DNA from: Actinomycetota bacterium
GTDB lineage: Bacteria > Actinomycetota > UBA4738 > HRBIN12
Reading direction: 5' to 3'
Assembly (NCBI GenBank): GCA_026003015.1
Contig: BPGL01000001.1
Span: forward strand, 282,297 to 346,296
Length of the DNA stretch: 64,000 bases
Shown in pieces: positions 1,602-58,219 of this stretch. Numbering within the stretch: the stretch's first letter is position 1; every line of letters starts with the position of its first letter. Position numbers and translations under genes: made by a program. The notes below the pieces were generated by a model. The model saw only the letters and a program-made list of their open reading frames with translations, was not told the origin of the DNA and did no database searches.

Positions 1602-1677
<76 letters not shown>

Positions 1678-40958: not shown

Positions 40959-41399
40959 GTGCCCGAGCGGCAGGCCCCGCGGGCGGGTCCTCGGCCTCGA
41001 CCTCGGGGAGGCCCGGATCGGCGTCGCGATCTCCGACGACGAACGCCGCCGGGTCGCCGTGCCCCTCGGCACCGATCGCGGACGGGAGCGCCCCGGGACC
41101 TCCGCCGCCATCGCCGAGCTCGTCCGCGGAGCGCGGCGTCGTCGCTGGTGGTCGTGGGGCACCCGCTCTCGCTCTCGGGGCGAGCGCGGGAGAGGCCGCG
41201 CGGCAGGCCGAGGCCTTCGCCGAGGCCCTCCGGGAGGTCCTGCCGTCCCCGTGGCCCTCCACGACGAGCGCCTGACCACGGTCGAGGCCGAGCGCGCCCT
41301 CGGGCGAGGCCGGGGCACGGCGGCCGGCGGCGCCGGCGAGCGGTCGGACGCGCTCGCGGCGGCGGTGATCCTCCAGGCCGCTGGACCGGTCGACGCTGA
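40959..41399 (+). CDS. ruvX: Holliday junction resolvase-like RuvX/YqgF (indels)
   Basis: RVLGLDLGEARIGVAISD, VVG.P.S, HDERLTT.EA, D.LAA.VILQ across frames. Confidence 0.88.
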   Translation: MPERQAPRAGPRPRPRGGPDRRRDLRRRTPPGRRAPRHRSRTGAPRDLRRHRRARPRSAASSLVVVGHPLSLSGRARERPRGRPRPSPRPSGRSCRPRGPPRRAPDHGRGRARPRARPGHGGRRRRRAVGRARGGGDPPGRWTGRR

Positions 41400-41437
41400 G
41401 CGTGCGGCCGCCGGGCCCGGCTATGCTCTCGGGCCGG

Positions 41438-42520
41438 ATGGCGGGGGTCGACCGCCCCGGGCGGGCCGACGGAGCCCCGCCGCCCCCGCCGGCGTGCGCG
41501 GCGCCCTGGCCGCGGTCGGCGGCGCTCGCGGGCGCTGGCCGTCCTCGGTGCCGGGGGCGCGGCCGCCCTACTACGAGCGGTGCCGCGAGGCCCGCGTCCC
41601 GAGGACGCCGTCACGGTCGACGGTGCCCGAGGGCGCCACGGCGGCGAGGTCGTGCGCCGCGCTGCACGAGGCGGGTCGTGCTCCGCTGCGGCGGGCTCGT
41701 CGGCGCCTGCTCCTGCGCCGGAGCGGGCGGGCCGGCGCGATCCGCCGGGGACCTACGAGCTCACGACGAACATGCGCCTCGACGAGGCCTCCTCGACGTC
41801 CTCACGGCCCGCCGCCGAGCCCCGACGGTGCGGCTCACGATCCCCGAGGGCTACCGGCTCACGCAGATCGCGGCAGAGCGCGTGCGACGGAGGCGCTCGG
41901 GTCTTCCCGGGCGCGGTTCCTGGCCGTGGCCGAGAGCGGCCGGCTCGCCCTCCCGCCCTACCTGCCGCCGGGGACGCCGACGCGTGGAGGGGTTCCTGTT
42001 CCCCGAGACCTACGAGTTCCTGCGCGAGGGCTCGACGGCGCGCGACGTGATCCGCGCGCTCCTCGACCAGTTCGCGGGGAGGCCGACGCAGCTGCCCTGG
42101 GGGAACGCCGAGCGGCTCGGCCTCACGCCCCTACGAGGTCGTCGTCGTGGCCTCGATGGTCGAGGAGGAGGCCGAAGCTCGCCGAGGAGCGGCCGCTGAT
42201 CGCCGGGGTGATCCACAACCGGCTCGGCGCGGGGATGCCGCTCGGGATCGACGCGACGCTGCTGTACGACGACCCGACCCCCGACGGCGAGCTCTCCACC
42301 GCCGACCTCGAGACCGACAGCCCGTACAACACGCGGCTGCGCGCCGGGCTCCCGCCGACCCCGATCGCGAGCCCCGGGCTCGCGTCGCTCGGTGGCGCGC
42401 TCGCACCCGGCGCGAGACCGACGTCCTCTACTACGTCCTGTGCCGGGCGAGGCGGTCCACACGAGTTCGCGCGTGACGCTCGCCGAGCCACGAGCGCAAC
42501 GGCGGGCGTGCCTGCGGTGA
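41438..42520 (+). CDS. mltG: Endolytic transglycosylase MltG (many indels; approximate)
   Basis: LTIPEGY, EGFLFPETY, ASMVEEEA, IAGVIHNRL..GMPLGIDAT, DSPYNT...GLPPTPI.SPG. Confidence 0.9.
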
Positions 42521-43378
42521 GCGACGGCGCTCCCGCGCGGTCCGCATCCGCGGGTCGACCCGCACCGTCGGTGGTGATCGGCTGGCCGGTCGCCCACAGC
42601 CTGTCGCCGGAGATCCACAACGCGGCCTTCGCGGCGCTCGGGCTGGACTGGGTCTACGTCCCGCTCCCGGTGCCGCCGGGGCGGTCGCGCGGCGCCCTCG
42701 CGGGCTGGTGGCGCTCGGGTTCTGCGGGGGCGAACGTGACGATGCCGCACAAGACCGAGGCGGCGGAGCTGGTCGACGAGCTGTCGGAGGAGGCGGGCGC
42801 CTGCCGCGGTGAACACCGTGATCGTGCGCGGGGGCCGCCGGGTCGGGGCACAACACCGACGCCGCCGGGTTCGACCGGTTCCTCCGACGGCGACGCGGGG
42901 TGCGACCCCGCGGGCCGCACGCGCGCTCCTGTCTCGGGGCGGGCGGGGCCGCCCGGGCGTGCGCCCTCGCCCTCGCGCGGGCGGGCTCGCGCGGCTCGTC
43001 GTGGCGGCCCGCGACCCCGCGCGGGCGAGCCTCGTGCGGGCCCTCGAGGGCGCCCGCGGAGCTCGAGGTCGAGGTGCGTGCCGTTCGAGCGGGCCGCCGA
43101 GCTCGGGTGGACCGTCTCGTCGTGAACGCCACGCCCCTCGGCGCCGCCGGCGAGAGCCGTCCCGCTCCCGCCGCTCGGCCCGGCGATGCTCGTCGTCGAC
43201 CTCCTGTACCGGCCGGCACGCCGCCGTCGCCCAGGCGGCCCGGCCGGCGGGGGCCGACGCGCTCGGGGGCCTGGGGCTCCTCCTCGCACCAGGCGGCCCT
43301 GTCGTTCGAGCTGTGGACGGGCGGGATCGCCCCGCCGCTCGAGGCGATGTCGGCGCGCCGCGCTGCACGGCGGATGAG
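42517..43378 (+). CDS. aroE: Shikimate dehydrogenase (many indels; approximate)
   Basis: IGWPVAHSLSP.IHNAAF, GANVTMPHK, VNT, NTD, GAGGAARA, VNATP, DLLY, QAALSFELWTG. Confidence 0.92.
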
Positions 43379-43428
43379 CCGGACGCCCCCGACGACCGGC
43401 CCGTCCGTAGCGCTCCGCGGGACCCAGT

Positions 43429-43458
43429 CTCAAGCGTCTCCCACGCGCCCGGTCCGAT
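43429..43458 (+). promoter_or_regulatory. Putative sigma28/WhiG-type promoter CTCAAG-N18-TCCGAT
   Basis: Same -35 hexamer as the pilin promoters, 15 nt before ATG 43474; the spacer is longer than in those promoters but lies in an indel-rich region. Confidence 0.4.
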
Positions 43459-43473
43459 GCCTGGGTCGAGGCC

Positions 43474-44235
43474 ATGGACGACCTCACTCGGCGCTGGCGC
43501 AGCGCGTCGCCCTCAGCGGTCGGTGACGTGCGCGGGGCTGTCTCGTGCTCTCACGGGACGGCCTGGTGCTGGGCTCCTTCCCCGACGACGACGCGGAGCA
43601 CCTCAAGCCGGCCTGGTTGCGCTTCGCGACGCTGGGCGACGCCCGCAAGAGGCTTCGTCGAGTTCGGCGGCGAGGTCTGGGCGTTCGTCCGTCGCGGGCC
43701 CTACGCCGGCCTTCGTCGTCGCCGGGACCTCGGTCCGCCCGGGGGTCGCTCATCGATCTCATGGAGCAGGCGCTGCTCACCGCCGAGGAGGCCCGGCCGA
43801 AGCGGGAGCCGCTCCGCGTCGCCCGAGCCGGGCCGCGCGGCGCCCTCCGGCAAGCCCCGGACCTCCGCTCCACGCGGAGCCTCCGAGCGCGTCCCCGAGG
43901 TCGTCGCCGCCCCGGAGAGCCCCGCGCCGGCCGACCGCCGGGCGTGGCGGCGCACGACCGCCCGCGGCGGCCGGGGCCGGGGCGACGCCGGCGTGACCGA
44001 CGGGCCGAAGGCCCCCGCGCCGCAGGACGCGGCAGGGCCCGCCGCGGACGCCCCCGCGGGGGACGCCGGCCCGGCACCCGCCCCGACCCGTGAGGAGCCC
44101 CAGCCGACGGGGCGGCGCACGCCCGCCGCGAGCGCCTGCCGTCGGCGCGGGCGGCCGGAGGAGGACGCGGAGATCGACCGGGTCCTCCTCGCCAAGGAGT
44201 TCTCCCGGCTGCTTCAGCTCGAGCCCGGACGGTGA
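43474..44235 (+). CDS. Roadblock/LC7 (MglB)-like N-terminal domain, Pro/Ala-rich linker and short C-terminal helix (indels)
   Basis: Reconstructed ...DVRGCLVLSRDGLVLGSFP...LKPAWLRF..LG...GFVEFGGEVWAFVRRGPY..FVVA...PG.LID.MEQAL; ends EIDRVLLAKEFSRLLQ. Confidence 0.5.
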   Translation: MDDLTRRWRSASPSAVGDVRGAVSCSHGTAWCWAPSPTTTRSTSSRPGCASRRWATPARGFVEFGGEVWAFVRRGPYAGLRRRRDLGPPGGRSSISWSRRCSPPRRPGRSGSRSASPEPGRAAPSGKPRTSAPRGASERVPEVVAAPESPAPADRRAWRRTTARGGRGRGDAGVTDGPKAPAPQDAAGPAADAPAGDAGPAPAPTREEPQPTGRRTPAASACRRRGRPEEDAEIDRVLLAKEFSRLLQLEPGR

Positions 44236-44296
44236 CGAAGATGGTGCCTGACGTGGGCTGGGATCGACCACGAGGACCGTCGGGCGAGTGACCACC

Positions 44297-45971
44297 GTGA
44301 GGCGGAAGTCCAAGCAGCTCGGGCAGATCCTGATCGAGCAGGGGCTCATCACCCCGGAGCAGCTCGAGGCCGCCCTCGAGGAGCACCGCCGACCCCGAAG
44401 TCCCTCGGCCGGGTCCTCATCGACATGGGCATGATCAAGGAGCCCGACCTCGTCCGGGCCCTCGCCGAGCAGGTCGGGCTGGAGTTCGTGGACCTCTCCG
44501 AGCCCAGATCGATCCCGGCCGCGCGCCTCGCTCCCCGAGCCCCTGGCCCGCCGCTACCGCGCGCTGCCGATCGGGGAGCGCGACGGGAAGCTCCTGGTCG
44601 CGATGTCCGACCCGGCGAACGTCTACGCCCTGGACGACATCCGGGCTCACGACCGGGCGGGACGTCCAGCCCGTGGTGGCCACCGCCAGCGACGTCGAGC
44701 AGGCGATCCAGCGCTTCGCCAGGGGGACCAGGTGGAGGCAGCCTCGCGATCGAGGCGCGAGGCCGCTGGAGGCCGAGGCGAGACCGAGGATCGAGGCCGC
44801 CGTCGAGGACGCGCCGATCGTGAAGCTCGTGAACGCGATCATGACCCAGGCCGTCGCCGATCGCGCCTCCGACGTCCACATCGAGCCGACGGAGAAGGAC
44901 GTGCGGATCCGGTTCCGCGTGGACGGCGTGCTCCACGAGGCGATGCCCCGCCCCGAAGAACATCCAGAACGGGCTCATCAGCCGCCTCAAGGTCATGGCC
45001 GACCTGAACATCGCCGAGAAGCGGGTGCCCCAGGACGGCCGGATCAGCATGAAGGTCGGGGGCCGGCAGCTCGACCTCCGGGTCGCGACGCTGCCCACCG
45101 TGTACGGCGAGAAGGTCGTGATCCGGGTCCTGGACAAGAGCAACGCCCTCCTCAAGCTCGAGGAGCTGGGCTTCCTGAGGACGCCTACGAGCGCTTCGAG
45201 CGGTCCTTCCGCAAGCCCTACGGCGCGATCCTCGTGACCGGGCCCACCGGGTCGGGCAAGTCGACCACGCTGTACGCGACCCTCAACATCCTCAACAGAT
45301 CGACCGGAACATCATCACGGTCGAGGACCCGGTCGAGTACCGGCTCCCGGGCGTGAACCAGATCCAGGTCAACCCCAAGGCCGGGCTCACGTTCGCCTCG
45401 GCCCTCCGCTCGATCCTGCGGGCCGACCCCGACATCGTCCTGATCGGGGAGATCCGCGACCGCGAGACGGCGATGATCGCCGTCGAGTCCGCCCTGACCG
45501 GCCACCTCGTGCTCTCCTCGCTGCACACGAACGACGCGCCCGAGCGCGATCACGCGCCTCACCGAGATGGGGGTGGAGACCTTCCTCGTGGCCTCCGCGA
45601 TCGACTGCGTGGTCGCCCAGCGCCTCGCCCGGCGGCTGTGCGACCGGTGCAAGGAGCCGTACGTCCCGCGACGCCGCAGGAGCTCCGCGAGGCCGGGTTC
45701 CCCGACGGCAGTGCCCGGATCCACCAGCTCTACCGGCCCGGTCGGGTGCGAGGCGCTGCTGCCCGGACCGGCTACCGGGGACGCTTCGGCCTGTACGAGG
45801 TGATGCCGATGTCGCGAGGAGATCGAGCGGCTGACCGTGGAGCGCGCGTCGTCCGAGGCGATCCGGGCGGTCGCGCTCGAGCAGGGGATGATCGACCTGC
45901 GCGCCGACGGCCTGATGAAGGCGATGCAGGGACTCACGTCCATCGAGGAGATCGCGAGGGTGGTGAAGTGA
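44297..45971 (+). CDS. pilB: Type IV pilus assembly ATPase PilB with N-terminal MshEN-like domain (indels)
   Basis: [54 protein letters not shown]...GEIRD, TGHLV.S.LHTND, C..C, GYRGR. Confidence 0.93.
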
Positions 45972-47142
45972 TGATGAGCATCGCGAGCGCCGGACGAGCA
46001 GGAGGTGGCGATCCCGATCCCCGAGCTCCTCGAGGTCGTCCTGGAGCGAGGAGCGTCGGACCTGCACCTCACGGCAGGGGCTCCGCCGACGATCCGTCTC
46101 CACGGCGACCTCGTCAGGCTGGACGAGTACCCCGTGATGACCCCGCAGGGCCTCCAGGGGATGATCTACGCGATCCTGCCGCAGCGGATGCGGGAGCGCT
46201 TGGAGCAGGACCTCGAGCTCGACATGTCGCTACTCGCTCCCCGGGAAGGCCCGGTTCCGCGTGAACGTGTACTTCCAGCGGGACTCGATCGGGGCCGCGT
46301 TCCGCCTGATCCCCTACGAGATCAAGACCATCGAGGAGCTCGGGCTGCCGCAGCGTGGTGGCGGACCTGGCCCGCTACCCCCGCGGGTTCGTGGTCGTGA
46401 CCGGGCCCACCGGGTCCGGGAAGTCGACGACCCTCGCCGCCATGGTGGACATCGTGAACCGCGAGCGCCGGCCCACATCATGACGGTGGAGGACCCCATC
46501 GAGTTCCTCCACAAGCACCAGAACTGCATCGTGAACCAGCGGGAGGTCGGCGCCGACACGCACAGCTTCGCCGCCGCCCTCAAGCACGTCCTGCGCCAGG
46601 ACCCGGACGTGATCCTCGTGGGCGAGATGCGCGACCTGGAGACGATCTCCACGGCCATCACCGCGGCCGAGACGGGGCACCTGGTCTTCGCCACCCTGCA
46701 CACGCAGGACGCCCCGCAGACGATCGACCGCATCATCGACGTCTTCCCGCCGCACCAGCAGCAGCAGGTCCGGGTGCAGCTCGCCACGACCCTCCAGGGC
46801 GTCGTGACCCAGCAGCTGCTCCAGACGGCGGACGGTCGGGGGCGGGTGGTGGCGGTCGAGGTCCTCGTGTGCACCCCCGCCGTCCGGAACCTGATCCGCG
46901 AGGGCAAGACCCACCAGATCTACTCGATCATGCAGGCCGGCGGCCGGTTCGGGATGCAGACGATGGACCAGGCCCTCGCCAACCTGGTGAAGGCGGGCAA
47001 GATCACCCAGCAGCTCGCGTACGAGCGCTGCCACGATCCCGAGGAGCTGAACCGGCTGATCGGCGGGGCGAGCGCCGGCTACCAGGCCGGCGCCGGGGCC
47101 GCGGCGGCCGTCGGGCTGTCCGTCGGCGGGTACCAGTACTGA
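45971..47142 (+). CDS. pilT: Type IV pilus retraction ATPase PilT (indels; start approximate)
   Basis: [68 protein letters not shown]. Confidence 0.95.
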
Positions 47143-47162
47143 GGCCGAGGAGCGCGAGCGCC

Positions 47163-48378
47163 ATGCCGACCACGTTCGAGTACAAGGTCCGGGACCGCGC
47201 CGGGAACCTGGTCACGGGGCAGCTCGTCGGGGACAGCGAGCTGATCGTCCTCCAGAAGCTCCGCGAGCAGGGCCTGACCCCCATCGAGGTCCGGAAGGCG
47301 AACGCCGGGCTCCGGATGGAGATCAACCTCCGCCCGGGCCGGGTGAAGCTGAAGGATCTGGCGGTCTTCTGCCGCCAGTTCGCCACCATGGTGAACTCCG
47401 GGCTGCCGATCCTGCGCGCGCTCGCGATCCTCGCCGAGCAGACCGCGAGCAAGGAGCTGCAGAAGATCCTCACCCAGGTCCGGACCGACGTCGAGCAGGG
47501 CTCCTCCCTCTCGGGGGCGCTGGCCAAGCACCCCAAGGCCTTCAGCGACCTGTTCGTCGCGATGGTCCGGGCCGGGGAGACCGGGGGCGTGCTCGACGAC
47601 GTCCTCCTCGACGGCGGCCGAGACGATCGAGAACGAGGTCGAGCTGCGCCGGAAGATCAAGTCGGCGATGACCTACCCGGTCGTGGTCGTGGTCCTCGTC
47701 GTCGCTGATCATGGCGGCCATGCTCCTCTTCATCGTGCCGCAGTTCGAGGCGATCTACGCCAGCCTGGACAGCCCGCTGCCCCTGCCGACGCGGATGCTC
47801 CTCGGCGCCTCGCGGCTCGTCCGCACGTTCTGGTGGCTCGTGCTCCTCGGGGCGATCGGCGGTCGGTTCGCGTTCCGCCGCTACAAGCGGACGCCGGCCG
47901 GGCGGGCCCAGGTCGACGCGCTGAAGCTCCGGGTCCCCGTCTTCGGTCCGCTGTTCCACAAGGCGGCCCTGGCCCGGTTCTCGAGCACCTTCGGGATGCT
48001 GCTGCAGCTCCGGCGTCCCCATCCTCCAGGCCCTGGAGATCGTGAAGGACACGGTGAACAACCAGGTCATCGCCCGGGCCGTGGCGGACGTCAAGGGGAG
48101 CGTGCGGGAGGGCGAGTCGATCGCCAAGCCCCTCGCCAAGCACGCCGTCTTCCCCCCCATGGTGGTGCAGATGCTCGCGGTGGGGGAGGAGACCGGCGCC
48201 GGTCGACACCATGCTCGACAAGGTCGCCCAGTTCTACAACTCGGAGGTGGAGGCGACGGTCGACGCCCTCACCTCCCTCATCGAGCCGCTGCTGATCGCG
48301 GTCATCGGCGGGGCGGTCGGTGCCGCCGTCATCGCCCTCTACATGCCGATGTTCAACATCATCAACCTGATCCAGTGA
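47163..48378 (+). CDS. pilC: Type IV pilus platform protein PilC (T2SSF family; indels)
   Basis: F.RQFATMV.SGLP, G.SLS.AL.KHPK.F, AGETGG.LD, KSAMTYP, LP.PT, FPPMVVQM.AVGEETG, IEP.L, MPMF. Confidence 0.94.
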
Positions 48379-48389
48379 TCCGCCCTCGC

Positions 48390-48416
48390 CCGGCCCCGGA
48401 GCGATCCGGGGGCCGG
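48390..48416 (+). terminator. GC-rich hairpin after pilC
   Basis: CCGGCCCCGGA-GCGA-TCCGGGGGCCGG, with a GNRA loop. Confidence 0.55.
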
Positions 48417-48420
48417 CCGG

Positions 48421-48448
48421 CTCAAGGAGCGGCCCGAAGCGGCCGAAA
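48421..48448 (+). promoter_or_regulatory. sigma28/WhiG/FliA-type promoter upstream of the major pilin
   Basis: CTCAAG-N15-GCCGAAA. Confidence 0.7.
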
Positions 48449-48505
48449 CCTTGAGGCGACGCGCATCACGGGGATGCGCGCGGACCTTCCTGGAAGGAGG
48501 GAGAC

Positions 48506-48991
48506 ATGCTCAAGGGGCTCTTGAAGCGGGTCCGCGAGGACGAGGGCTTCACCCTGATCGAGCTGATGGTGGTCGTCCTGATCATCGGCATCCTGGTCGC
48601 CATCGCTCTGCCCACGTTCCTCGGGGCTCGCGAGCGCGCCCAGAACCGGGCCGCGCAGTCGTCGCTCCGCAACGCCCTCGCGGCCGCGAAGACGGCGTTC
48701 ACGGACACCGACGACTACAGCGGCGCGACCGACGCCGACCTGGACGCGATCGAGCCGTCCCTCACGTACGTCGACGGCACCACGGCCTCTACCGGGCCGA
48801 CCGAGGTGAGCGTCTCGGTCTACAACTCGGACGCCAACTGGGCCGCGGCCGCGATGTCGGAGTCCGGGACGTGCTTCTGGATCGACGACGTGTCCGCCGG
48901 CACCGGCGCCGGGACCTTCTACGGGTCGACGACGACCGCCGCCGACTGCACGGGCGCAGACGCCCAGGGCGCGAGCGCGAGCAGCTGGTAA
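48506..48991 (+). CDS. pilA: Major type IVa pilin
   Basis: Class III signal EDEG|FTLIELMVVVLIIGILVAIA.P; C-terminal Cys pair; strong SD AAGGAGG; own promoter and terminator. Confidence 0.93.
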   Translation: MLKGLLKRVREDEGFTLIELMVVVLIIGILVAIALPTFLGARERAQNRAAQSSLRNALAAAKTAFTDTDDYSGATDADLDAIEPSLTYVDGTTASTGPTEVSVSVYNSDANWAAAAMSESGTCFWIDDVSAGTGAGTFYGSTTTAADCTGADAQGASASSW

Positions 48992-49043
48992 GCCGACGGC
49001 TTACCGGCGCAGCATGGAGGGGCGGCCTGCGGGCCGCCCCTCC
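48985..49043 (+). terminator. Two tandem hairpins after pilA
   Basis: GGTAAGCC-GAC-GGCTTACC (48987-49005) and a perfect 12-bp stem GGAGGGGCGGCC-TGCG-GGCCGCCCCTCC (49016-49043). Confidence 0.7.
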
Positions 49044-49070
49044 GCCGTTCCCCGGTCGGTCGAGGAGAGG

Positions 49071-49098
49071 CTCAAGGGGGTCCCCCGACCGACCGAAA
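49071..49098 (+). promoter_or_regulatory. sigma28/WhiG/FliA-type promoter upstream of the minor pilin operon
   Basis: CTCAAG-N15-ACCGAAA; same spacing and CCGAAACC core as the pilA promoter. Confidence 0.7.
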
Positions 49099-49113
49099 CC
49101 CATGGGGAGAGCC

Positions 49114-50389
49114 ATGCGGAACCCGCGCGCGCACCCGCACCGCCTCCGCCGTGAGGAGGGCTTCACGCTGGTCGAGGCGATGGCCTCGCTCACGATCCTC
49201 ACCGTGGCGGCCTTCGCGATCGCCCAGGCGATCGCCTTCGGTCTGAAGACGAGCGGCATGTCCCGCCAGCGCCTCGCGGCCCGGGCGGCGGCCGAGCAGC
49301 AGATGGAGCTCGCCCGCGCGCTCAACTACGACACCCTGGTGCTCAACGACGCGGCGCCGATCCCCCATGAGAGCGACCCGAGCCACCCCGACCACTGGGT
49401 GAACGAGGCGGCGCAGACGTTCGACCCCGACGGCGCCGGCAGCCTCGCCGCGGAGCCGATCATCCGCCAGGCGGGCGCCTCACCGGCCCTGCAGCACGTC
49501 CAGGCCCCCTTCGAGGCGGGGAACACCTCGTTCGAGGTCTACCTGTACGTGACGTGGGTGGACGCGCCCGGGGACGGGTTGGGGGTCGGCCGACGCGGCC
49601 GACGGTGACGGCGACGGCGTCTCGGACGCGAACGGCCAGGACCACAAGCGCGTGACCGTGGCGGTCCGTTGGCGCGACGGCGCGACCGGCGACTGGCGCC
49701 TCGAGCGGATGAGCTCGCTGTTCTCGCGAGGCGTCGTGCCCTACCACGCGACCTCGGGCACGCCCTCGCCGAGCCCCTTGGGATCCCCGAGCCCCTCGCC
49801 CTCGCCGAGCCCGTCGCCCCTCGCCGAGCCCGTCGGGATCCGGGCCCGCCTGCAGCGTGACGATCGCCGGCGGCGCCGCCTACACGACGCAGACCGTCGT
49901 CACGCTCACGCTCTCCTCGAGCCAGAGCCCGACCCACATGCAGTTCTCGAACGACGGCTCGACCTGGGGGACGAAGGAGGCGTACGCGACCTCGACGATC
50001 TACACGCTGCCCTCGGGGGGGAGGGGACGAAGACGGTCTACGTCCGGTGCTGGACGAACGACACCGTCGGGCCGGTGGCGAGCGACACGATCATCCTCGA
50101 CTCGACGCCGCCGGGTGCCCCGACGAACCTGCAGGCCTCCTCGAGCGTGTCCGGGTCGACGAGGTACGTGACGCTCACGTGGTCCGCGCCCTCGCCGCTC
50201 GGCGACGTCGTCGGCTACCGCGTGTACCGGAGGCTCACGACCTCGAGCACGTGGACCCAGGTCGCGTGCAGCGGATCGGGAACGACCTGCTCCGACAGCT
50301 TCAAGAAGCAGGACCACTACGAGTACTACGTCGTCTCCTACGACGCGGCCGGCAATGAGAGCGCGCACAGCAACCACGTCACGGTCTAG
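49114..50389 (+). CDS. Large minor pilin (PilV-like) with acidic DxDGDG loop, Pro/Ser linker, Ig-like and fibronectin type III domains (indels near 49590, 49850, 50020)
   Basis: EEG|FTLVEAM; DGDGDGVSD; PSPSPSPSP; TIAGGAAYT...FSNDG..W...GTKTVYV...DTIILD; PGAPTNL...LTWSAP...YRVYR...YYVVSYDAAGNES. Confidence 0.75.
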
Positions 50390-50871
50390 CGAGCAGGGCT
50401 TCACCCTCGTGGAGCTCCTGGTCACCTTCGCGCTGCTCGGCATCGTCGCGACGGCGGTGATCGGGATCGCGATGCGGGCGTTCTCCGACACCGCGACGAT
50501 CGTCGATCGCCGCGACGTGTTCGCCGACGGGCGGCTCGCGCTGGACCGGCTGAGCAAGCAGCTCCGGCAGGCCGAGTCGATCGACACCGCCTGGAGCACC
50601 ACGAGGCAGGTCAGGTTCACCGGCTACCTCAACGGGGCGAGTCGGGACGTTCGCCTGGCGCGTCGTCGGCTCAGCGCCTCCGTACCGCCTGCAGGAGTCC
50701 CGCAACGGCGGCACGACCTACACGACGGTCGTCTCGTCGCTCGCGAGCCCGGATGTGTTCACGCTGACGACGCACGGCGGGGTCGCCGACCAGGTGACGA
50801 TCGACCTGACGCTCACGACCCGCACGACGACCGTCGCCCTCAGATCCGACGTCTTCTTGCGCAACGCCTGA
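50355..50871 (+). CDS. Minor pilin (PilW-like; frameshift near 50645)
   Basis: EQG|FTLVELLV, R.ALDRL.KQLRQA, C-terminal V.LRN. Confidence 0.85.
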
Positions 50872-50884
50872 GAGGAGTTCATCG

Positions 50885-52355
50885 ATGCGCGCGTTCGACC
50901 GACTCCAGCGAGACGAGGGTGGGTACGCCCTCGCGATCACCGTCCTGCTCGTGGCGGTGATGATGGTCCTGATGGTGGTGTCGCTCGACGCGGGGTCGTC
51001 GGCGCTGCGCCGGAGCCAGGAGGGGCTGCGCTGGGCCCGCACGCTGACGGTGGCGGAAGCGGGGATCAACCAGGCGATCACCCAGCTCTCGCAGAACCGG
51101 ACGGCCGCGTCCCCGTGCCCGCTGGGATCCACGAGTGTGTGCACCGGTGAGGGCGGACAGTTCCAGGTGAGCTGGACCGGCCAGGCCGACGGGAGCCTCG
51201 TCGTGAACGCGCGCGGCTACTACCCGTCGCTCGCCTCGCCGCGGGTACCAGCGCGAGGTACGCGTCGTGCTCGAGCCGGTGCCGACCTTCCGCTACGCGC
51301 TGTTCTCCCTGGACACCCTCACGGTGAAGAACAACGCGGTGATCGTCGGCGACGTGTACTCGGCTGCGAGCGTGGCCGTCGACCAGAACCAGGTGATCTG
51401 CGGCAGCGTGATCGCCGCCGGCGGCAACGTCTCGATCGGGAACAACACGCAGATCGTCAGGTCGCACGCGTCCTCGGGATGCTCGGGGAAGGACGGCAGC
51501 GTCTGGGCGAACGGATCGATCAGCCTCGGCACGACCGCGACGGTCGGCGGGGACGCGAAGGCCTCGGCGCCGAGCGGCACCACGTGCAACGCGACGTCGA
51601 CGAGCTACCAGATCACCGACGGGCAGGTCCAGGGCAACGCGACCGCCTGCGGCCGGATCACCTCGACCGTCGGGGGGACGCGCTCCCCGGGCACGAACAC
51701 GACGCCGCCGGCGGTGGAGCCCCTGCCGACCTTCACGTTCGACGTGAACAACTACCCGAGCCTGCAGTGCTACCCGAGCACCGGGACCTGCGGCCCGAGC
51801 AACACGTCGACGACCGCGGTCTCCTCCTTCAACACCTACGTCTCGGCGAACAAGACCTCGCTGCGGGGCACCTTCGCAGTGTGGCAGTCGAGCCCCTCGC
51901 AGTCGACGAAGGTCAACCTCGACGGGATCCGGCTCGGCGGCGACCTCACGATCATCACGAACGCGCCGGTCGACTTCGGCAACACCTCGGACGTGACGCT
52001 CGCGCCGGGGGTGAGCTCGGCCGAGCTCGTGATCGTTTCGTTGTACGTGCCGCCGGTGAACACGACGTGCGATACGAACGGGGGCGAGTGCAGCATCTAC
52101 GCGAAGAACTCGGTCACGTTCGACGACGGGGTCGACGCGGACCCCAACGACGGGATCGCCGCCCTGCTGTACACGCCGGGGAAGATGGCCTTCAAGAACT
52201 CGGGCGGCTCGAACAGCAACGGCGAGGGCGCCCTGTACGCGGGCGGGATGGACCTGAAGAACGGGTTCCAGATCGAGTACAACGGGCGCATCCAGAAGGT
52301 CCTGGGGTTCGGCGTCGGGCTCGAGCAGACCCTCTGGCAGGAGCTGAACGTCTGA
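50885..52355 (+). CDS. PilX-like minor pilin with a large Cys-containing, beta-rich C-terminal domain (frameshift near 51250)
   Basis: DEGG|YALAITVLL (no Glu5), VAEAGINQA PilX motif, F.YALFS, repeated V.GD/G.V.A.G.V.I units, ends WQEL. Confidence 0.8.
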
Positions 52356-52397
52356 GCTTCCCCGATCCCGAACCGTGTCGGCGGTAGGGTGCCGCCG

Positions 52398-53177
52398 ATG
52401 AGCGACGCGTGGGTGCGAGCGCTGGTCGCGCTCCCGTTCGGCCTGGTGATCGGCAGCTTCATGACCGTCGTCGTCGCCCGCGTGCCGACCGGGGCATCGG
52501 TCGTGCGCCCCCGCTCGCGGTGCCCGTCGTGCGGGGGGCCGGTCCGCGCGCGCGACAACGTCCCGGTGCTGAGCTGGGTGCTGCTGCGCGGTCGGTGCCG
52601 CGCGTGCCGCGCCCCGATCTCGGTGGCCTACCCCCTCCTGGAGCTCTCGACGGCGGTGCTGTTCGCGGGGTCGTTCGCCGCGCACGCCGATCCCTGGGCC
52701 GGTGCGCTCGTCGCCGCGCTCCTGTCGCTCATGCCGGCGATCGCCGCGATCGACCTTCGCCACCGCATCATCCCGAACCGCCTCATGTACCCGGCGCTTG
52801 CCGCCTTCCCGCTCTTCGTGCTCCTCGGGTGGCTCGCAGGAGGGACCCCGGATCCGGTGCGGGCGGCGATTGGGTTCGCGGCCTTCGGGGGAGGCCTGTT
52901 CCTGGTCGCCATCGTGAGCGGCGGGATGGGGATGGGCGACGTCAAGCTGGCCGCCCTGGAGGGCGTCGCCCTCGGGGCGCTGGGCCTTGCCCGGGTCGGG
53001 GTCGCCGCGGGGGTCGCCGTCGCGGTGGGTGGCCTGGTCGCGATCGCGGCCCTGCTCGCCGGGCGTGGACGGCGGGCCGCGATCCCGTTCGGCCCGTCGC
53101 TCGCCGCCGGGGCCGTGGCGGCCGGCCTGTGGGGTCCGCAGCTCGCCGACCTGTACCTCCGGGCGCTGCGCGGCTAG
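52398..53177 (+). CDS. pilD: Prepilin peptidase/N-methyltransferase (A24)
   Basis: GSF..VV..RVP, RSRCPSC, DNVPVLSW..LRGRCRAC, IDL....IPN, GMG.GDVKL, IPFGP; TAGGGT -10 7 nt upstream. Confidence 0.95.
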   Translation: MSDAWVRALVALPFGLVIGSFMTVVVARVPTGASVVRPRSRCPSCGGPVRARDNVPVLSWVLLRGRCRACRAPISVAYPLLELSTAVLFAGSFAAHADPWAGALVAALLSLMPAIAAIDLRHRIIPNRLMYPALAAFPLFVLLGWLAGGTPDPVRAAIGFAAFGGGLFLVAIVSGGMGMGDVKLAALEGVALGALGLARVGVAAGVAVAVGGLVAIAALLAGRGRRAAIPFGPSLAAGAVAAGLWGPQLADLYLRALRG

Positions 53178-53314
53178 GGCGAGGGCGACGCCGCCCGATC
53201 CCGACCGTCTCGGGCTGCAGCAGCTGCCGGTCCAGAAAGTCCCCGGAGGTGTTTGACTCGGCCCTCGCCGCGGTGTTCCCTGAGCGCGCTCGTGACGGCC
53301 GATGCGCCGAGACG

Positions 53315-53350
53315 AGCCACATGTTGAACACGAGGCACATGGAGCACATC
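53315..53350 (+). repeat. Four tandem imperfect 9-bp direct repeats
   Basis: AGCCACATG/TTGAACACG/AGGCACATG/GAGCACATC, with ACA at the same register in all four, overlapping the start of the HTH gene. Confidence 0.6.
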
Positions 53351-53587
53351 CACTTCCCCGCTCCGCTCCGTGAGGCGACGGACCCCGGCCGCGAGCCCGG
53401 CCGCCCCGGGGTCCTGCTCACCGTCGCCGAGGTCGCGGCGATCCTTCGCGTCTCGACGATGACGGTCTACCGCTTGATCCGCACCGGGCAGCTGGCCGCG
53501 GTGCGCGTGGGCCACGGCTGGAGGATCCCGCAGGACGCCGTCGAGCGCTACCTCGCGTCCCGCACGGTCGGCGTGGAGGAGGCCTGA
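53339..53587 (+). CDS. Excisionase/BldC-like MerR-type winged-HTH DNA-binding protein
   Basis: LLTVAEVAAILRVSTMTVYRLIRTGQLAAVRVGHGWRIP...V..YL; TGATG-coupled to pilM; start ATG 53339 or 53321. Confidence 0.88.
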   Translation: MEHIHFPAPLREATDPGREPGRPGVLLTVAEVAAILRVSTMTVYRLIRTGQLAAVRVGHGWRIPQDAVERYLASRTVGVEEA

Positions 53588-54654
53588 TGGCCCGCGGCAG
53601 GATCGGCCTCGACATCGGCTCGACCGCCGTGCGCGCGGCCGAGGTCGCCTGGACCGCGGCCCCCGCCGTCGTACGCGCGGCCCAGGTTCCGCTGCCCGCC
53701 GGCGCCGTGGAGAGCGGGGAGGTCCGCGACGCCGAGGCCGTGGCGGCGGCTCTCAAGGAGCTGTGGCACGAGGGCGGCTTCAAGGCCCGCCAGGTCTGGA
53801 TGGGGATCGGGAACCAGCGGGTCTTCGTGCGGGAGGTGGTGATCCCCTGGCTCCCGGACAAGGAGCTCCGCGCGTCGCTGCCGCTGCAGGTTCAGGAGTT
53901 CCTGCCGATGTCCGCCGACGAGGTCGTCCTCGATCACGTCCCGGTCGCGGAGTTCGAGCAGGAGGACCGCCGGATGCTGCGGATCCTGCTCGTGGCGGCC
54001 CAGCGGACCGCGGTCGACGCGGCGGTGCGCGCGGTGCAGGCGGCGCGCTTGGAGCCGCTGGGCCTCGATCTCGTCCCCTTCGCCCTCGTGCGCGCCGTGG
54101 GGACCGACGACGGCGCCCTGGGGCTCGAGGAGCAGGGGGAGGAGGCGATCGTCGACATCGGCGCGCACGTGACGAACATCGTCGTCCACGCGCGCGGCAC
54201 GACCCGGTTCGTGCGGATCGTCCCGGCGGGCGGACGCGACATCACGACCGCGGTCGCGCGAGCCTTCGGGGTCGACGACGAGCTCGCCGAGCGACTGAAG
54301 CGCGGCGAGCCGGTGGGCGACCAGGAGGCCGCCGAGCCCCCGGCGCCAGACGAGGTCCGCTCCGTGGCGTTGACGCGTGCCGCGGCCTTCGTCGACGAGA
54401 TCCGTTCCTCGCTCGAGTTCTACACGGCGCAGGCCAAGGACGCTCGGATCGGCAGGCTCCTGGTCACCGGGGGTGGATCGAAGCTCGACGGGCTCCTGGA
54501 CGTGATGCGCGAGCGGATCCCCCTGCCGGTGGACCCAGCCCGCGTCTTCGAGCACGTCGCCTCCCAGCTCAGCTGGAGCCCCGAGGAGGCGGCCGACCAC
54601 GAGCCGCTGCTCACCGTCGCGGTCGGCCTCGCGATCCCGGGGAGGGACGCGTGA
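53587..54654 (+). CDS. pilM: Type IV pilus assembly protein PilM
   Basis: Actin-like fold: IGLDIGSTAVR, LP.GAV..GE, VDIGA..T, EIRSSL.FY, VTGGGS, AVGLA. Confidence 0.94.
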   Translation: MARGRIGLDIGSTAVRAAEVAWTAAPAVVRAAQVPLPAGAVESGEVRDAEAVAAALKELWHEGGFKARQVWMGIGNQRVFVREVVIPWLPDKELRASLPLQVQEFLPMSADEVVLDHVPVAEFEQEDRRMLRILLVAAQRTAVDAAVRAVQAARLEPLGLDLVPFALVRAVGTDDGALGLEEQGEEAIVDIGAHVTNIVVHARGTTRFVRIVPAGGRDITTAVARAFGVDDELAERLKRGEPVGDQEAAEPPAPDEVRSVALTRAAAFVDEIRSSLEFYTAQAKDARIGRLLVTGGGSKLDGLLDVMRERIPLPVDPARVFEHVASQLSWSPEEAADHEPLLTVAVGLAIPGRDA

Positions 54655-55271
54655 GCCAGGTCAACCTGCTGCCGCCCGAGGTCCTCGAGGCTCAGCGCTG
54701 GCGTCGCCTGTCGGGGCTCATCGCGATCGGCGGGCTCGCGGTGATCGGGCTCATCCTCGTCTTCTACCTGATGCAGGTCGTGACGCTGGGGGGTGTGCGC
54801 GACGACATCGACGCGCAGCGGGCGACGAACGCGCAGCTGCAGTCCCAGGTCGCGGAGCTCCAGCGCTTCGAGGACCTGCAGATCCGCGCCCAGGCCAAGC
54901 AGGAGCTCCTCGGCGCCGCCTTCGCCGGCGAGACGAGCCTGTCGGGGCTGCTGATGGACCTGTCGCGGGTGATCCCCTCCGACGCCGCGTTGGACTCGCT
55001 CACGGTGAGCCTCACGCCGCCGAGCGACGAGGACGAGCCCGCCGAGCCGGGGGCGCCGGTGTTCGTCGGCACGATCTCGACGACCGGGGCCGCCGAGGGC
55101 ATCGACTCGCTCAGCACCTGGCTCACGCGCCTCGAGCAGGTCGAGGGCTGGGTCAACCCGTGGATGAGCTCGATCTCGCGGCGGGAGGCGGGCGATGACG
55201 TCTTCACGTTCACCTCGGGCGTCGACCTCACCTCCGACGTCCTCACGAGCCGGGGGCGGCAGGTCGGATGA
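54651..55271 (+). CDS. pilN: Type IV pilus assembly protein PilN
   Basis: QVNLLPPE N-terminal PilM-binding motif, TM, coiled coil, L..LS..IP. Confidence 0.9.
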   Translation: MSQVNLLPPEVLEAQRWRRLSGLIAIGGLAVIGLILVFYLMQVVTLGGVRDDIDAQRATNAQLQSQVAELQRFEDLQIRAQAKQELLGAAFAGETSLSGLLMDLSRVIPSDAALDSLTVSLTPPSDEDEPAEPGAPVFVGTISTTGAAEGIDSLSTWLTRLEQVEGWVNPWMSSISRREAGDDVFTFTSGVDLTSDVLTSRGRQVG

Positions 55272-55873
55272 GGGGCCGGCGCGGTCCGCTGCTCGTCGTG
55301 GCCGGCGTGCTCGGCCTCGCCCTCCTGCTCGTCGTCGTGCTCGTGCTCCCGAAGATGAGCGAGGTCTCCGCGGCCAGGGCCGAGCTGGAGGAGGCCGAGC
55401 GCGAGCAGGTCACGCTCGAGTCGCGCCTGCGCGCGCTCGAGGAGGCGCGGGACCAGGCGCCGACGTCGCGCGAGATCATCCGGGAGATCGAGCGGCAGAT
55501 CCCGCCGACCGCCGACCTTCCGGGCTTGATCCTCCTGCTGCAGAACGCCGCGGTCGGGTCGGGCCTGGATCTGGTGACCCTCACGCCCGGCACGCCTGCG
55601 TTCGACGAGACGACGGGGCTGTCGACGATCGACGTGGCGATCACCGCCGAGGGCTCGTACTTCGACGTGGCGGAGTTCATGTTCCGGATCGAGACGCTGC
55701 CGCGGGCCGCGCGGGCCACGAGCCTGTCCCTGTCCCCGGCCGGGGAGTCGGACACGGCCGGGTCTCCGACGCTGTCCTTCGCGGGCAACGTCACGTTGTT
55801 CACGAGCGACACGAGCGCCGGCCCGGGCTCGATCCCCGGTCCGACGACCGAGGTCCCCGAGGAGGAGGGCTGA
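55268..55873 (+). CDS. pilO: Type IV pilus assembly protein PilO
   Basis: TM, coiled coil, IP...DLP.L, I...GSY.....F...IE.LPR. Confidence 0.88.
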   Translation: MRGRRGPLLVVAGVLGLALLLVVVLVLPKMSEVSAARAELEEAEREQVTLESRLRALEEARDQAPTSREIIREIERQIPPTADLPGLILLLQNAAVGSGLDLVTLTPGTPAFDETTGLSTIDVAITAEGSYFDVAEFMFRIETLPRAARATSLSLSPAGESDTAGSPTLSFAGNVTLFTSDTSAGPGSIPGPTTEVPEEEG

Positions 55874-55876
55874 GGG

Positions 55877-56433
55877 ATGCGGCTCAGCGACCGCGACCGA
55901 CGCACCCTTCGGATCGGCGGGATCGTCGCCGGCGCCCTCCTGGTCCTCGCGTTGGCGGTGAACCTGCTGATGGGCGGCGGCGAGGAGGAGGTCGCGGCGC
56001 CGACCCCGACCGCGACGGTCGGCCCGACGGTCTCGCCGACCCCGACCCCCAGCCCGCCGCCGCCCCGGTCGCCGTGTTCACCGGCCGCGATCCGTTCTCC
56101 CAGCCGCCGGCGCTCGCGCCGCCCTCGACGACCCCGACCTCGCCGACGACCTCGCCGACCGGATCGCCGACCGGATCGCCGACGGGATCCCCGACAGCGC
56201 CGGGAGGAGACCAGAGCCACCAGGTGGGGGGCGACACGATCGTGCTGCTCGACGTCTTCACGGTGAGCGGCGTCGAGCGGGTCCAGGTGGAGGTGAACGG
56301 CCGCGTCTTCGACGTGGCGGAGGGCGAGACCTTCGCCGGCGGGCGATACCGGCTGCGGTCGATCACCGGGCGGTGCGCGACGTTCGTCCGCGGCGACGAG
56401 GCGTTCACCCTCTGCGTGCAGCCGCAGAAGTAG
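55877..56433 (+). CDS. Membrane-anchored pilus-associated protein in the PilP position (frameshift near 56065)
   Basis: LSDRDRR plus TM, P/T linker, GRDPF motif, beta domain V.V.G..FDV..GETFA with a Cys pair. Confidence 0.65.
56137..56196 (+). repeat. Five 12-bp coding tandem repeats (TSPT/GSPT)
   Basis: ACCTCGCCGACG ACCTCGCCGACC GGATCGCCGACC GGATCGCCGACG GGATCCCCGACA. Confidence 0.8.
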
Positions 56434-56573
56434 GCGAGCTCGAGGCCCCGGCGATCCGCCCACGGGGGGAGCGGTCGCCGGCCGCGAGGGCGGTCCCCCA
56501 GCGGGGCCGCCCTCGCACCGTCCTGGGGCGGGATCGGGCCGGTCCCGATGCGCCGGTCCCTATGATGGGCGCC

Positions 56574-57725
56574 ATGCTGCGCTACCTCACGGCCGGCGAG
56601 TCCCACGGCAAGGGACTCGTGGCCATCCTCGAGGGGCTCCCGGCCGGGGTTCCCTACCGGTCCGAGGACCTCGACCACGAGCTCGCACGGCGCCGGACGG
56701 GCTACGGGCGCGGCGGCCGGCAGAGGATCGAGCGCGACCGGTTCGACGTGGTGAGCGGGGTTCGCCACGGGCGGACGCTCGGCACGCCGATCGCCGTGAC
56801 GATCCCCAACGTGGAGTGGGAAACGCGGTACCGCGACCTGATGGCCACCGAGGGAGAGCCCGATCCCGGCGCGCGCCTCACGCGGCCGCGGCCGGGCCAC
56901 GCGGACCTCGTCGCGGTCCTGAAGTACGGCCTCGACGACGTGCGCGACGCCCTGGAGCGGGCGAGCGCGCGCGAGACCGCCGCACGCGTGGTGGTCGGCG
57001 CGTTCTGCAAGGCGTTCCTGCGGGAGCTCGGCGTGCGGGTCGTCTCCCACGTCGTGCGCATCGGCCGCGCCGCGGCCCCCGCCCGCTCGCGGCCGACGCC
57101 CGAGGACCTGGAGCGGGTCGACGCCTCGCCGGTGCGCTGCCTCGACCCGGAGGCGTCGGAGCGGATGGTCGCCGAGATCCAGGCCGCCCGTCGGAACCGC
57201 GACACGGTCGGGGGCGTGTTCGAGGTCCTCGCCTACGGGGTCCCGGTGGGGTTGGGCTCCCACGTCCACTGGGATCGCAAGCTCGACGCGCGCCTGGCGG
57301 CCGCGCTGATGTCGATCCAGTCGGTCAAGGGGGTCGAGGTCGGCGACGGCTTCGCCCTCGCGACCCGTCCGGGGTCCCGCGCGCACGACGAGATCGTGGT
57401 GCGAGGCGGACGCCTGGCCCGGCGGACGGGCCGAGCGGGCGGGATCGAAGGGGGGATCTCGACGGGTCAGCCGATCCGCGTGCGCGCCGCGATGAAGCCG
57501 TTCTCGACCGTGCCCCGACCGCTGGCGACGGTGGACCTCGCGACCGGGGAGCCGGCCACGGCGATCCGTCAGCGCACCGACGTGTGCGCCGTCCCCGCCG
57601 GCGCGGTCGTCGGGGAGGCCGTGGTCGCGTTCGTGCTGGCCGAGGCGATGCTGGAGAAGTTCGGCGGGGACTCCCTGCCCGAGACGCGCCGCAACCTCGA
57701 GGCGTACGTGGAGGGGCTCCCGTGA
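56574..57725 (+). CDS. aroC: Chorismate synthase
   Basis: [35 protein letters not shown]; TATGAT 7 nt upstream (leaderless). Confidence 0.97.
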
Positions 57726-58219
57726 TCGTCTACCTCGTCGGGATGCCGGGGTCGGGCAAGTCGACCGTCGGACGGGAGCTCGCCGGTCGGCTCGGCGTCC
57801 CGTTCGTCGACCTCGACGCAGAGATCGAACGGGAGGCGGGCCGAGGGGTCACCGAGATCTTCGAGGCGGAAGGGGAGGCGGGCTTCCGCGCCCGGGAGGC
57901 TCGGGCGCTGCTCGAGGCCGGACGCCACGACCCCTCCGTCGTCGCGTGCGGGGGTGGCGTCGTGCTCGAGCCAGCGAACCGGATCACGCTTCGCAACACC
58001 GGGATCTGCGTCTTCCTCGACGTCCCCCTCGAGATCCTGCGCCGCCGCGTCGAGCCCTCGGCCGCCCGGCCGCTGATCCGCCGAGAGGGGGACCTGGAGC
58101 AGTTGCTCGCGGCCCGCGAGCCCCTGTACCGGGAGTTCGCCGCCCACGTCGTGGACGGCAGCGGCTCGCCGGGGCAGGTCGCCGAGGCGATCATCGAGGA
58201 GCTGCGTTGGAGCGCGTGA
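57722..58219 (+). CDS. aroK: Shikimate kinase
   Basis: [31 protein letters not shown]. Confidence 0.96.

Follow-up and report, generated by a model that had tools for sequence, protein, structure and literature searches.

Our study indicates that a 64-kb stretch of DNA from an Actinomycetota bacterium (GenBank assembly GCA_026003015.1, contig BPGL01000001.1, C1 below), referred to here in its full length as the window, carries at positions 43,429 to 56,433 a genuine type IVa pilus (T4aP) cluster, probably intact in nature. Its host falls within an order of Actinomycetota that is uncultured, high in GC and without secretins. Among the plus-strand open reading frames (ORFs) between 43.4 and 56.4 kb, Pfam recognizes T2SSE in three, T2SSF in two and N-methylation motifs in two, as well as an A24 prepilin peptidase, HTH_17, PilM_2, PilN and PilO. 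Together with tblastn, these matches place all the genes listed by an earlier, sequence-only reading of the window on that strand and in the order it had claimed. The components by which a T4aP system is recognized are all represented, namely a PilB-type ATPase, PilT, PilC, PilD, PilM/N/O and pilins with an N-methylation motif. A T4aP cluster with PilT and without a secretin, as that reading had it, is also what the pil matches and the failure to find a secretin (PF00263) in the source genome describe; this genome (G000) amounts to 2.2 Mb in four contigs, is 90.5% complete and is error-prone. In those relatives where the whole cluster falls inside the retrieved stretch, it is intact and has the same gene order as in the window. 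The G007 locus, for example, has Pfam matches for PilB (MshEN and T2SSE), PilT, PilC, two PilA-like pilins, two more pilin-like genes, a PilX_N protein, PilD, HTH_17, PilM, PilN and PilO. PilM was detected in 36 of 41 related genomes. This tally and those given below for the class, the phylum sample, the PilM loci and the secretin include genomes flagged as unpublished: G024, G029 and G037 among the 41 relatives; G029, G037, G077, G078, G106, G113, G130, G134, G145, G160, G172 and G201 in the class tally for the Roadblock gene; and G029, G205, G221, G249, G281, G316, G341, G365, G411 and G422 in the phylum tally for PilM.

The explanation that we prefer for the region as a whole, and to which we give somewhat better than even chances, is an intact T4aP cluster arranged in four units under layered control (Table 1). 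A first WhiG-type promoter would serve a Roadblock-fold gene, pilB, pilT and pilC; a second, together with a conserved 5' hairpin, would serve pilA; and a third would serve the minor pilins, probably with pilD. The fourth unit, which comprises a gene for a small winged helix-turn-helix (wHTH) protein, pilM, pilN, pilO and a PilP-like gene, would have a separate promoter with a TTGAC(T/A) -35 element followed by an array of 9-bp repeats, and its wHTH gene would be translationally coupled to pilM. From the gene content, conservation and motifs that we observe, and from folds that are predicted, we infer the following steps of binding and regulation. The sigma factor WhiG would switch on the motor, pilin and minor-pilin units, cyclic di-GMP (c-di-GMP) would act on PilB via an MshE-type N-terminus, the wHTH protein would bind along its own 9-bp array in the head-to-tail manner of BldC, thereby setting the level of the PilMNOP platform, and the Roadblock-fold protein would serve as a lineage-specific adaptor of the pilus motor.

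The novelty of this locus resides in the array of repeats and in the accessory genes; the sigma-28 and c-di-GMP layers are not new, the WhiG promoters and the MshEN domain being confirmatory. The pairing of the HTH gene and its array with pilM, the Roadblock gene in actinobacterial pil loci and a PilP-like protein in a secretin-less lineage are all undescribed in the literature searched, figures and PDF supplements lying outside the search. The pili studied in Actinomycetota are Tad-type according to a 2019 review, and the type IVa pili of this phylum are almost unstudied. The locus and its several hundred relatives provide testable parts: a small DNA-binding protein with a candidate operator, a Roadblock protein without a GTPase and a PilP-like domain without a secretin. 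If the HTH protein and the array work together as proposed, they would provide a second case of DNA being bound head to tail in the manner of BldC and would tie a second class of Streptomyces-type developmental regulator to pilus control, beside WhiG. A bolder version, which we consider decidedly unlikely, is that a BldC-type wHTH protein polymerizing on a private 9-bp array is an ancient, phylum-wide governor of PilMNOP, that it formed with WhiG a two-tier regulon from which Streptomyces later drew BldC and WhiG as sporulation regulators, and that the PilP-like homology region (HR) and the Roadblock adaptor work without a secretin or MglA.

The winged-HTH gene and its repeat array

The HTH proteins are 63-88 aa long and HTH_17 is the sole domain found in them, with no dimerization or effector domain. 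The HTH of a relative scores 68 bits with the excisionase-family model TIGR01764 (cut-off 28.8), and the best PDB matches are 6AMK and 6AMA (E 4.5e-4), both of which are BldC-DNA complexes (PMC5859096). BldC of Streptomyces is likewise described as a single-domain MerR/excisionase-like wHTH protein of ~65-90 aa without an effector domain, and it binds direct repeats with a 9-bp period, one protomer to each, in arrays of variable number (PMC5859096). The designation 'BldC-like' given in the sequence-only reading is therefore to be narrowed, since the excisionase/MerR-like wHTH class stands and membership of the BldC subfamily does not (27.9 bits with NF033787 against a cut-off of 77).

The gene keeps constant company with pilM. 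A scan of species-representative genomes gave 587 related HTH loci, and in all of the best 80 the next gene downstream on the same strand is pilM, at a distance of 20 nt or less in 69 of them; pilD is upstream in 59 of these 80. In the window, the HTH stop codon overlaps the pilM start codon (TGATG). Of the best 30 PilM loci that come from other families within the phylum, 17 likewise have this HTH gene just upstream of pilM, a count that includes unpublished loci of G422, G365 and G221.

Upstream of the HTH start codon, relatives have a GTGTTTGAC(T/A) block and then tandem units such as ATGTGGCAG TTGTGACAC ATGTGACAG; a simple consensus scan for the promoter of the HTH-pilM operon gave no full sigma-70 site. 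We counted the periodicity of these leaders with custom scripts, besides running Tandem Repeats Finder (TRF). The lag of maximal self-identity is 9 in 39 of 95 HTH leaders, compared with 38 of 376 coding segments. In 94 HTH leaders, one TGT[GT] motif follows another at exactly 9 nt 124 times, versus 21 times on the opposite strand, and the corresponding figures are 26 versus 3 for a distance of 10 nt and 21 versus 2 for 18 nt. The whole 2.2-Mb genome contains a single TGT[GT] array of at least four units (at spacings of 9, 10, 18 or 19 nt), which is at the HTH leader, and arrays of this size are present in 8 of the 12 18-kb loci of relatives, again solely at the HTH leader. The tandem-repeat site that had been remarked next to the HTH gene is thus both real and specific. 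Because the array is unique in the genome, a local regulator is suggested, unlike the pleiotropic BldC. The simplest reading of the sequences is that the HTH protein may cover its own leader as a dedicated regulator and thereby determine how strongly PilMNOP is expressed.

Several observations weigh against this. The array of the window has only three clear copies, with CACAT at distances of 18 and 9 nt; TRF at its threshold reports no repeat in the window or in locus L018, and a period-9 repeat in L024 only; the HTH protein falls below the BldC subfamily cut-off; and its repeat unit, ATGTGrCAs, differs in sequence from the AATTxxxxC of BldC sites (PMC5859096). They leave some room for an alternative in which the HTH protein does not act through the array, the repeats being an RNA-level leader or the operator of another protein, and the HTH protein acting elsewhere or as a partner of PilM that does not bind DNA. 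Since the array sits between a promoter-like element and the start codon, it would be transcribed, and translational coupling to pilM, another difference from BldC, fits a protein partnership as well. We nevertheless consider this alternative unlikely: the array and the HTH gene co-occur across distant families, the array is found nowhere else in the genome, its 9-bp period is the footprint of a BldC protomer (PMC5859096) and no Rfam family matches the leader. Autoregulation through the array by the HTH protein therefore remains the reading that we carry forward.

Some further features of these leaders deserve mention. The 'excisionase' motif of Weinberg et al. (2007) was considered as a candidate for the array and rejected, being described there as a 10-15-bp hairpin and not as a 9-bp direct-repeat array. 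In the genus of the window, the HTH ORF can start further upstream and read through the array (window 53321-53360; L020 12346-12400), which adds a His-rich stretch to the N-terminus (MLNTRHMEHIHF..., MEHVHHVAHV...); the array is out of frame in other lineages. An AT-rich near-palindrome (AATTACA-n-TGTAATT-like) lies ~60-100 nt 5' of the HTH -35 element in L016, L018, L022 and L024, conspicuous against their high GC content, and was not seen in the window; it may be a second operator.

The Roadblock-fold protein and the PilP-position protein

The product of the first gene of the cluster has, in the family alignment, a conserved N-terminal domain of ~115 aa, the motif PSGKPRTSLHP and a variable linker rich in Pro and Ala; at the C-terminus it has a conserved helix, EIDRVLLAKEFS.LLQ, with the alignment segment EIDRVLLAKEFSGLLQ.DSD.DE. 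Its AlphaFold model has a predicted local distance difference test (pLDDT) score of ~90 for residues 1-110, and the C-terminal helix is predicted too. With the model as query, Foldseek gave 85 PDB matches at E<=1e-3, headed by Roadblock/LC7, MglB, MglC and LAMTOR. The MglB-like protein of the sequence-only reading is thus upheld as to its fold, on a predicted model, and weakened as to family, the Roadblock model PF03259 giving 18.3 bits in the window and 14.4 in a relative, both under the cut-off of 23, which counts against a Roadblock assignment. The family has 996 matches in a protein collection clustered at 90%, nearly all of them unnamed or 'hypothetical' and none with a Pfam domain. Its profile is found in 174 of the 201 genomes of the class and, in the phylum sample, in 17 of the 18 other genomes of the order and in one of 232 outside it, the last a marginal match (E 9e-4). 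Judged from these matches, the gene is restricted to one order. In all 18 genomes in which both are on one contig, unpublished G029 included, it lies on the same strand as pilM and 6-18 kb upstream. Both this gene and the HTH gene are thus conserved in pil loci, so that the sequence-only reading stands on the point on which it had staked itself.

That reading had also entertained a 'polarity module'. No MglA/Arf-like or CvnD-like GTPase reaches its cut-off in the genome, where the two models used, PF00025 and PF03029, have best scores of 16.6 and 20 bits, and a GTPase gene is absent from the 14 loci of relatives examined. With MglB, MglC and CvnB, the protein shares a link to a motility apparatus and the alpha-beta-beta-alpha-beta-beta-beta-alpha Roadblock fold, here predicted. 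Unlike them, it comes without a detected MglA- or CvnD-type GTPase, scores below the Pfam threshold, has three added elements (the PSGKPRTSLHP motif, a linker that is long and disordered, and an acidic, conserved helix at the C-terminus), and is encoded directly upstream of pilB in one order only. From the fold, the order-restricted distribution, the synteny with pilM and the GTPase searches, we therefore favour a lineage-specific adaptor of the pilus motor over an MglB-type GTPase-activating protein (GAP).

The competing proposal is that the protein is an MglB-like GAP or guanine nucleotide exchange factor in a polarity module whose small GTPase the searches missed. MglB and MglC are indeed among its fold matches, and a small gene could be missed in a genome that is 90.5% complete and error-prone. 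Set against this are the sub-threshold scores of both GTPase models, the loci of relatives without a GTPase gene and the conserved disordered linker and C-terminal helix, which are not known as features of MglB. We regard an MglB-like role as very unlikely and retain that of a motor adaptor.

The protein encoded after PilO has a short N-terminus, a transmembrane (TM) helix, the conserved motif GRDPF, a linker rich in Pro and Thr, and a beta domain of ~70 residues, the predicted model of which has a pLDDT above 90. In a VIA-align comparison with 48,161 chains, the HR of GspC (3oss_C) came out on top (Z 9.0, root-mean-square deviation 2.3, 65 of 65 residues); the HRs of LspC and PulC were also ranked, and PilP matched with Z scores of 7.3 (Neisseria), 7.2 (Myxococcus), 6.0 (Pseudomonas) and, for one further entry, 6.9. 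Foldseek gave weak E-values of 0.1-0.3 with probabilities of 0.98-1.0. Three of these proteins had no Pfam match at E<=0.05, PilP and T2SSC included, and there was no NCBIfam match; as a lead only, an atlas search pointed to a cluster scoring 0.88 in which 13% of the members carry T2SSC. On the strength of its predicted model, the gene after pilO appears to encode a PilP/GspC HR-like domain. As in the PilP and GspC HR proteins of diderm T4aP and type II secretion systems, the gene follows pilO, and the protein is anchored in the membrane at its N-terminus and ends, beyond a disordered linker, in a beta domain. Unlike PilP and GspC, it has a TM helix in place of a lipoprotein signal and no Pfam PilP/T2SSC match, and the partner secretin was not found. 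Of 81 genomes of the order, 2 have PF00263, and Omp85 was not found in G000 either. The missing secretin is as expected for a monoderm form of the apparatus; the absence of PilP in monoderms is called 'logical' in the 2019 review.

WhiG-type promoters and c-di-GMP

WhiG is represented in the genome by an equivalog (NF004935, 350.8 bits, cut-off 343; TIGR02479, 270 bits, cut-off 189.6), and FHIPEP/FlhA was looked for there and not found. As a criterion for WhiG promoters we took a T(A/C)AA-N16-GCCGA site no more than 200 nt from a start codon (bioRxiv 10.64898/2026.01.14.699351). The site at 48422, 84 nt 5' of the pilA start, is the sole strict match to T[AC]AA-N15-17-GCCGA in the window; that at 49072, before the minor-pilin operon, departs from the pattern at one position and has equivalents in relatives. 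At the position equivalent to the site before the first operon, TCAA-N16-[GC][ACT]CGAT is present in 10 of 10 relatives. Overall, relatives have sigma-28-type sites at three fixed positions, 111-128 nt from the pilin motif, and in 11 aligned pilA upstream regions the promoter block is conserved and its CC-GA core invariant. A loosened pattern applied to 15 loci gave 2.3 sites per kb upstream of pilins against 0.11 per kb elsewhere, figures to be read with the fact, adverse to our interpretation, that the loosened -35 (TCA[AG]) was picked after inspecting the data. The sigma-28-type promoters of the sequence-only reading are thus borne out, together with the sigma factor expected to read them.

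An objection to WhiG control is that the sites might be chance matches or be read by another sigma factor. The pattern is short, most of its 66 strict matches across the genome fall within coding sequence, and the 43430 site fails on spacer length in the window (19 nt), where it lies inside an error-rich stretch. This objection is highly improbable in view of the three fixed positions conserved in relatives at a near-constant distance from the pilin motif, the invariant CC-GA block, the presence of WhiG without FlhA, and the Rubrobacter precedent with its mapped start sites (PMC8325347). Control by WhiG is accordingly kept in the model.

WhiG control of type IV pili has been published for Rubrobacter, where three WhiG promoters were mapped in the pil cluster (PMC8325347); for other families it has been predicted (bioRxiv 10.64898/2026.01.14.699351). 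This layer therefore does not belong to an 'undescribed system', as had been suggested. The WhiG-(c-di-GMP)-RsiG system of Rubrobacter radiotolerans resembles ours in having an actinobacterial type IV pilus cluster with three internal sigma-28-type promoters, WhiG in a lineage that is unicellular and not flagellate, and GGDEF genes in the genome (PMC8325347). The main text of that paper, figure 6B and the supplement excepted, is silent on any HTH/excisionase gene, Roadblock gene or PilM (PMC8325347). As to RsiG, the other half of the WhiG/RsiG switch, the published motif, E(X)3S(X)2R(X)3[Q/H](X)3D, has no match in the six-frame translations of this 90.5% complete and error-prone genome. Since no RsiG motif was found, control of WhiG by c-di-GMP is unsupported here.

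The second point at which c-di-GMP might enter is PilB. In most relatives, PilB begins with two 24-residue MshE-type motifs at positions 10-33 and 39-62, separated by a 5-residue spacer, motif I ending in ....L..ALEEH and motif II in ....LVRALAEQ. This is the architecture described for MshEN, two 24-residue motifs 5 residues apart at the extreme N-terminus of the extension ATPase (PMC5013675). The MshE-related motif model NF053729 gives 69.1 bits in the PilB of a relative (cut-off 38), in support of the MshEN-like N-terminus that had been proposed, and at the start of the window pilB the motifs are legible in two frames. The PilB of a relative also matches PF00437 and PF05157 and, with 664.2 bits, falls just below the TIGR02538 equivalog cut-off of 675.65. 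Unlike the published receptor, the motifs here begin with Q (motif I) or S (motif II) and not with Arg, and motif I ends in H and not in Gln (PMC5013675). These departures speak against c-di-GMP binding, and changes of Arg9 and Gln32 are reported to have a less than fivefold effect (PMC5013675). The genome has nine GGDEF matches. In locus L021 (G038), two tandem full-length PilB paralogues, both with an MshE-type N-terminus, stand upstream of pilT (55-3437).

The pilA leader downstream of the strict WhiG-type site contains the conserved hairpin of Table 1, which has seven pairs in the RNAalifold consensus of 11 sequences, three of them with compensatory changes, and which matches no Rfam family at the gathering threshold. 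Directly 3' of pilA there is a GC-rich hairpin, GAGGGGCGGCC-TGCG-GGCCGCCCCTC, at 49017-49042, without a T-run; it is likely to mark the end of a monocistronic pilA transcript. A consensus promoter and terminator scan of 43-57 kb returned no sites, this hairpin included.

Elsewhere in the genome, a second PilA-like pilin gene (...DEGFTVVELMVVVLIIG...) on the minus strand at about position 716445 of C1 has TCAA-N16-GCCGATGG directly upstream and adjoins a gene of the sigma-70 family (C1:716532-717140). The whiG gene itself lies in a comM-dprA-xerC-whiG-M23 peptidase neighbourhood (C1:211000-223000, locus L032), with rpsB-tsf-pyrH further downstream; because of this synteny, two competence-related genes stand beside the sigma factor of the pilus. 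The genome encodes ComEC, which had been named as worth looking for, as well as DprA and ComM, and DNA uptake is therefore one possible use of the pilus; as between twitching, adhesion and uptake, we favour none.

Frameshifts, gene map and surroundings

The sequence-only reading called the pil locus complete. The gene set is indeed present; the copy in the window is frameshifted and needs error correction before that word can apply to it. At least seven genes are affected, and alignments run through two or three frames in mltG, aroE, the Roadblock-like gene, pilB, pilT, pilC, the minor-pilin region and the PilP-position gene. Part of the stretch is present in 20 sequencing runs from 14 studies, mostly hot-spring or microbial-mat metagenomes and none on record as RNA, and we compared the window with the contigs of four hot-spring runs (X1, X2, X5 and X8). 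Between 43428 and 48378, the contigs of the four runs concur against the window in many indels of 1-2 nt and in mostly C<->G exchanges, with, for example, 57 substitutions and 44 gaps over 1.28 kb. Between 48566 and 51400, the X2, X5 and X8 contigs differ from it by six gaps and only 1-3 substitutions. When the five insertions at 43516-43747 that the four runs' contigs lack are deleted, the Roadblock domain becomes one ORF that fits the family consensus. Because the genes of relatives are intact, the run contigs agree against the window and the Roadblock ORF can be restored, we conclude that the frameshifts are very probably consensus errors. Two points count against this: the indels between window and run contigs are represented by 12 of 99 in our list, and over 48566-51400 the X1 contigs, at a depth of 2-2.8, are identical to the window, indels included. 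The exact match to X1 means that the window's indels exist in at least one data set, possibly its source. The assembly seems locally unpolished over 43428-48378 and is almost identical to the run contigs from 48566 onwards.

That the cluster consists instead of decaying pseudogenes, with real mutations and a pilus no longer made, could be argued from the X1 match, from the locus being the strongest frame-change hot spot of C1 (36 changes in its 20-kb bin under a frame-tracking model, at most 21 in the other bins) and from the state of pilB, which is in at least six T2SSE pieces while the other T2SSE genes of the genome are unbroken. This is scarcely credible, given that the G+C content at third codon positions (GC3) within the fragments is still 0.9-0.99, that four runs share alternative letters without the insertions, that removing five of these recovers an ORF, that six indels against 1-3 substitutions and an excess of C<->G exchanges are unlike a mutational pattern, and that the housekeeping genes mltG and aroE are frameshifted as well.

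The gene map in Table 1 combines Pfam matches on the window ORFs with tblastn of intact proteins from two relatives, G011 and G002; the loci of 14 relatives were retrieved, and their genes were called by GC3. The window PilT is 63-68% identical to that of G011 by tblastn, and the PilT of a relative scores 480 bits with TIGR01420 (cut-off 319). In the minor-pilin region, the gene from 49114 is pilin-like with an fn3-like part, that at 50355-50960 is also pilin-like, and that at ~50885-52355 is large and PilX-like; in relatives, this region has matches to N_methyl, PilX_N and DUF4900.

Table 1. Positions in the window of the pilus genes and of the candidate control elements; a point in the strand column marks an element given without a strand.
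Feature	Position	Strand	Evidence
Sigma-28/WhiG-type site before Roadblock-like gene	43430-43459	+	TCAA...TCCGATG, 19-nt spacer
Roadblock-like gene	43474-44235	+	tblastn, frames, family alignment; frameshifted
pilB, extension ATPase	44288-45971	+	T2SSE fragments, tblastn; at least 3 frames in window
pilT, retraction ATPase	45978-47142	+	T2SSE, tblastn; one frame change near 46231-46241
pilC, platform protein	47163-48378	+	T2SSF in two ORFs, tblastn in three frames; frameshifted
Sigma-28/WhiG-type pilA promoter (putative), TCAA-N16-GCCGAAAC	48422-48449	+	strict pattern match
Conserved hairpin, pilA 5' leader	48460-48480	+	RNAalifold, 11 sequences
pilA, major pilin, 161 aa, ...EDEGFTLIELMVVV...	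48506-48991	+	ORF, tblastn 61% identity to G011 PilA
Sigma-28-type minor-pilin operon promoter (putative), TCAA-N16-ACCGAAAC	49072-49099	+	one mismatch
Minor-pilin region	49114-52355	+	N_methyl, fn3, tblastn; several frame changes
pilD, prepilin peptidase, intact	52389-53177	+	A24_N_bact, Peptidase_A24; 65-71% identity to relatives
Conserved TTGACT, -35-like, HTH-pilM operon	53253-53258	+	block GTGTTTGAC conserved upstream in relatives
9-bp direct-repeat array	53318-53349	.	CACAT (+) / ATGTG (-), copies at 53318, 53336, 53345
Small winged-HTH gene (HTH_17)	53321-53587	+	HTH_17 59 bits
pilM, intact	53587-54654	+	PilM_2 148 bits over full length
pilN	about 54651-55271	+	PilN Pfam match, tblastn
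pilO	55268-55873	+	PilO Pfam match, tblastn
PilP/GspC-HR-like gene (predicted)	55877-56433	+	tblastn in two frames; one frame change

The cluster is inserted on the plus strand between aroE and aroC, in a window whose G+C content ranges from 69 to 79%. It is flanked 5' by ruvX-mltG-aroE (41059-43400; Pfam matches RuvX, YceG and shikimate dehydrogenase) and 3' by aroC and more conserved genes (56562-58956; Pfam match chorismate synthase), and relatives share these flanks. At the gathering threshold, Rfam finds four tRNAs only in the window and none inside the pil locus; these tRNA genes, at 1602-1674, 2382-2453, 2496-2567 and 7063-7134, are unrelated to the pil locus.

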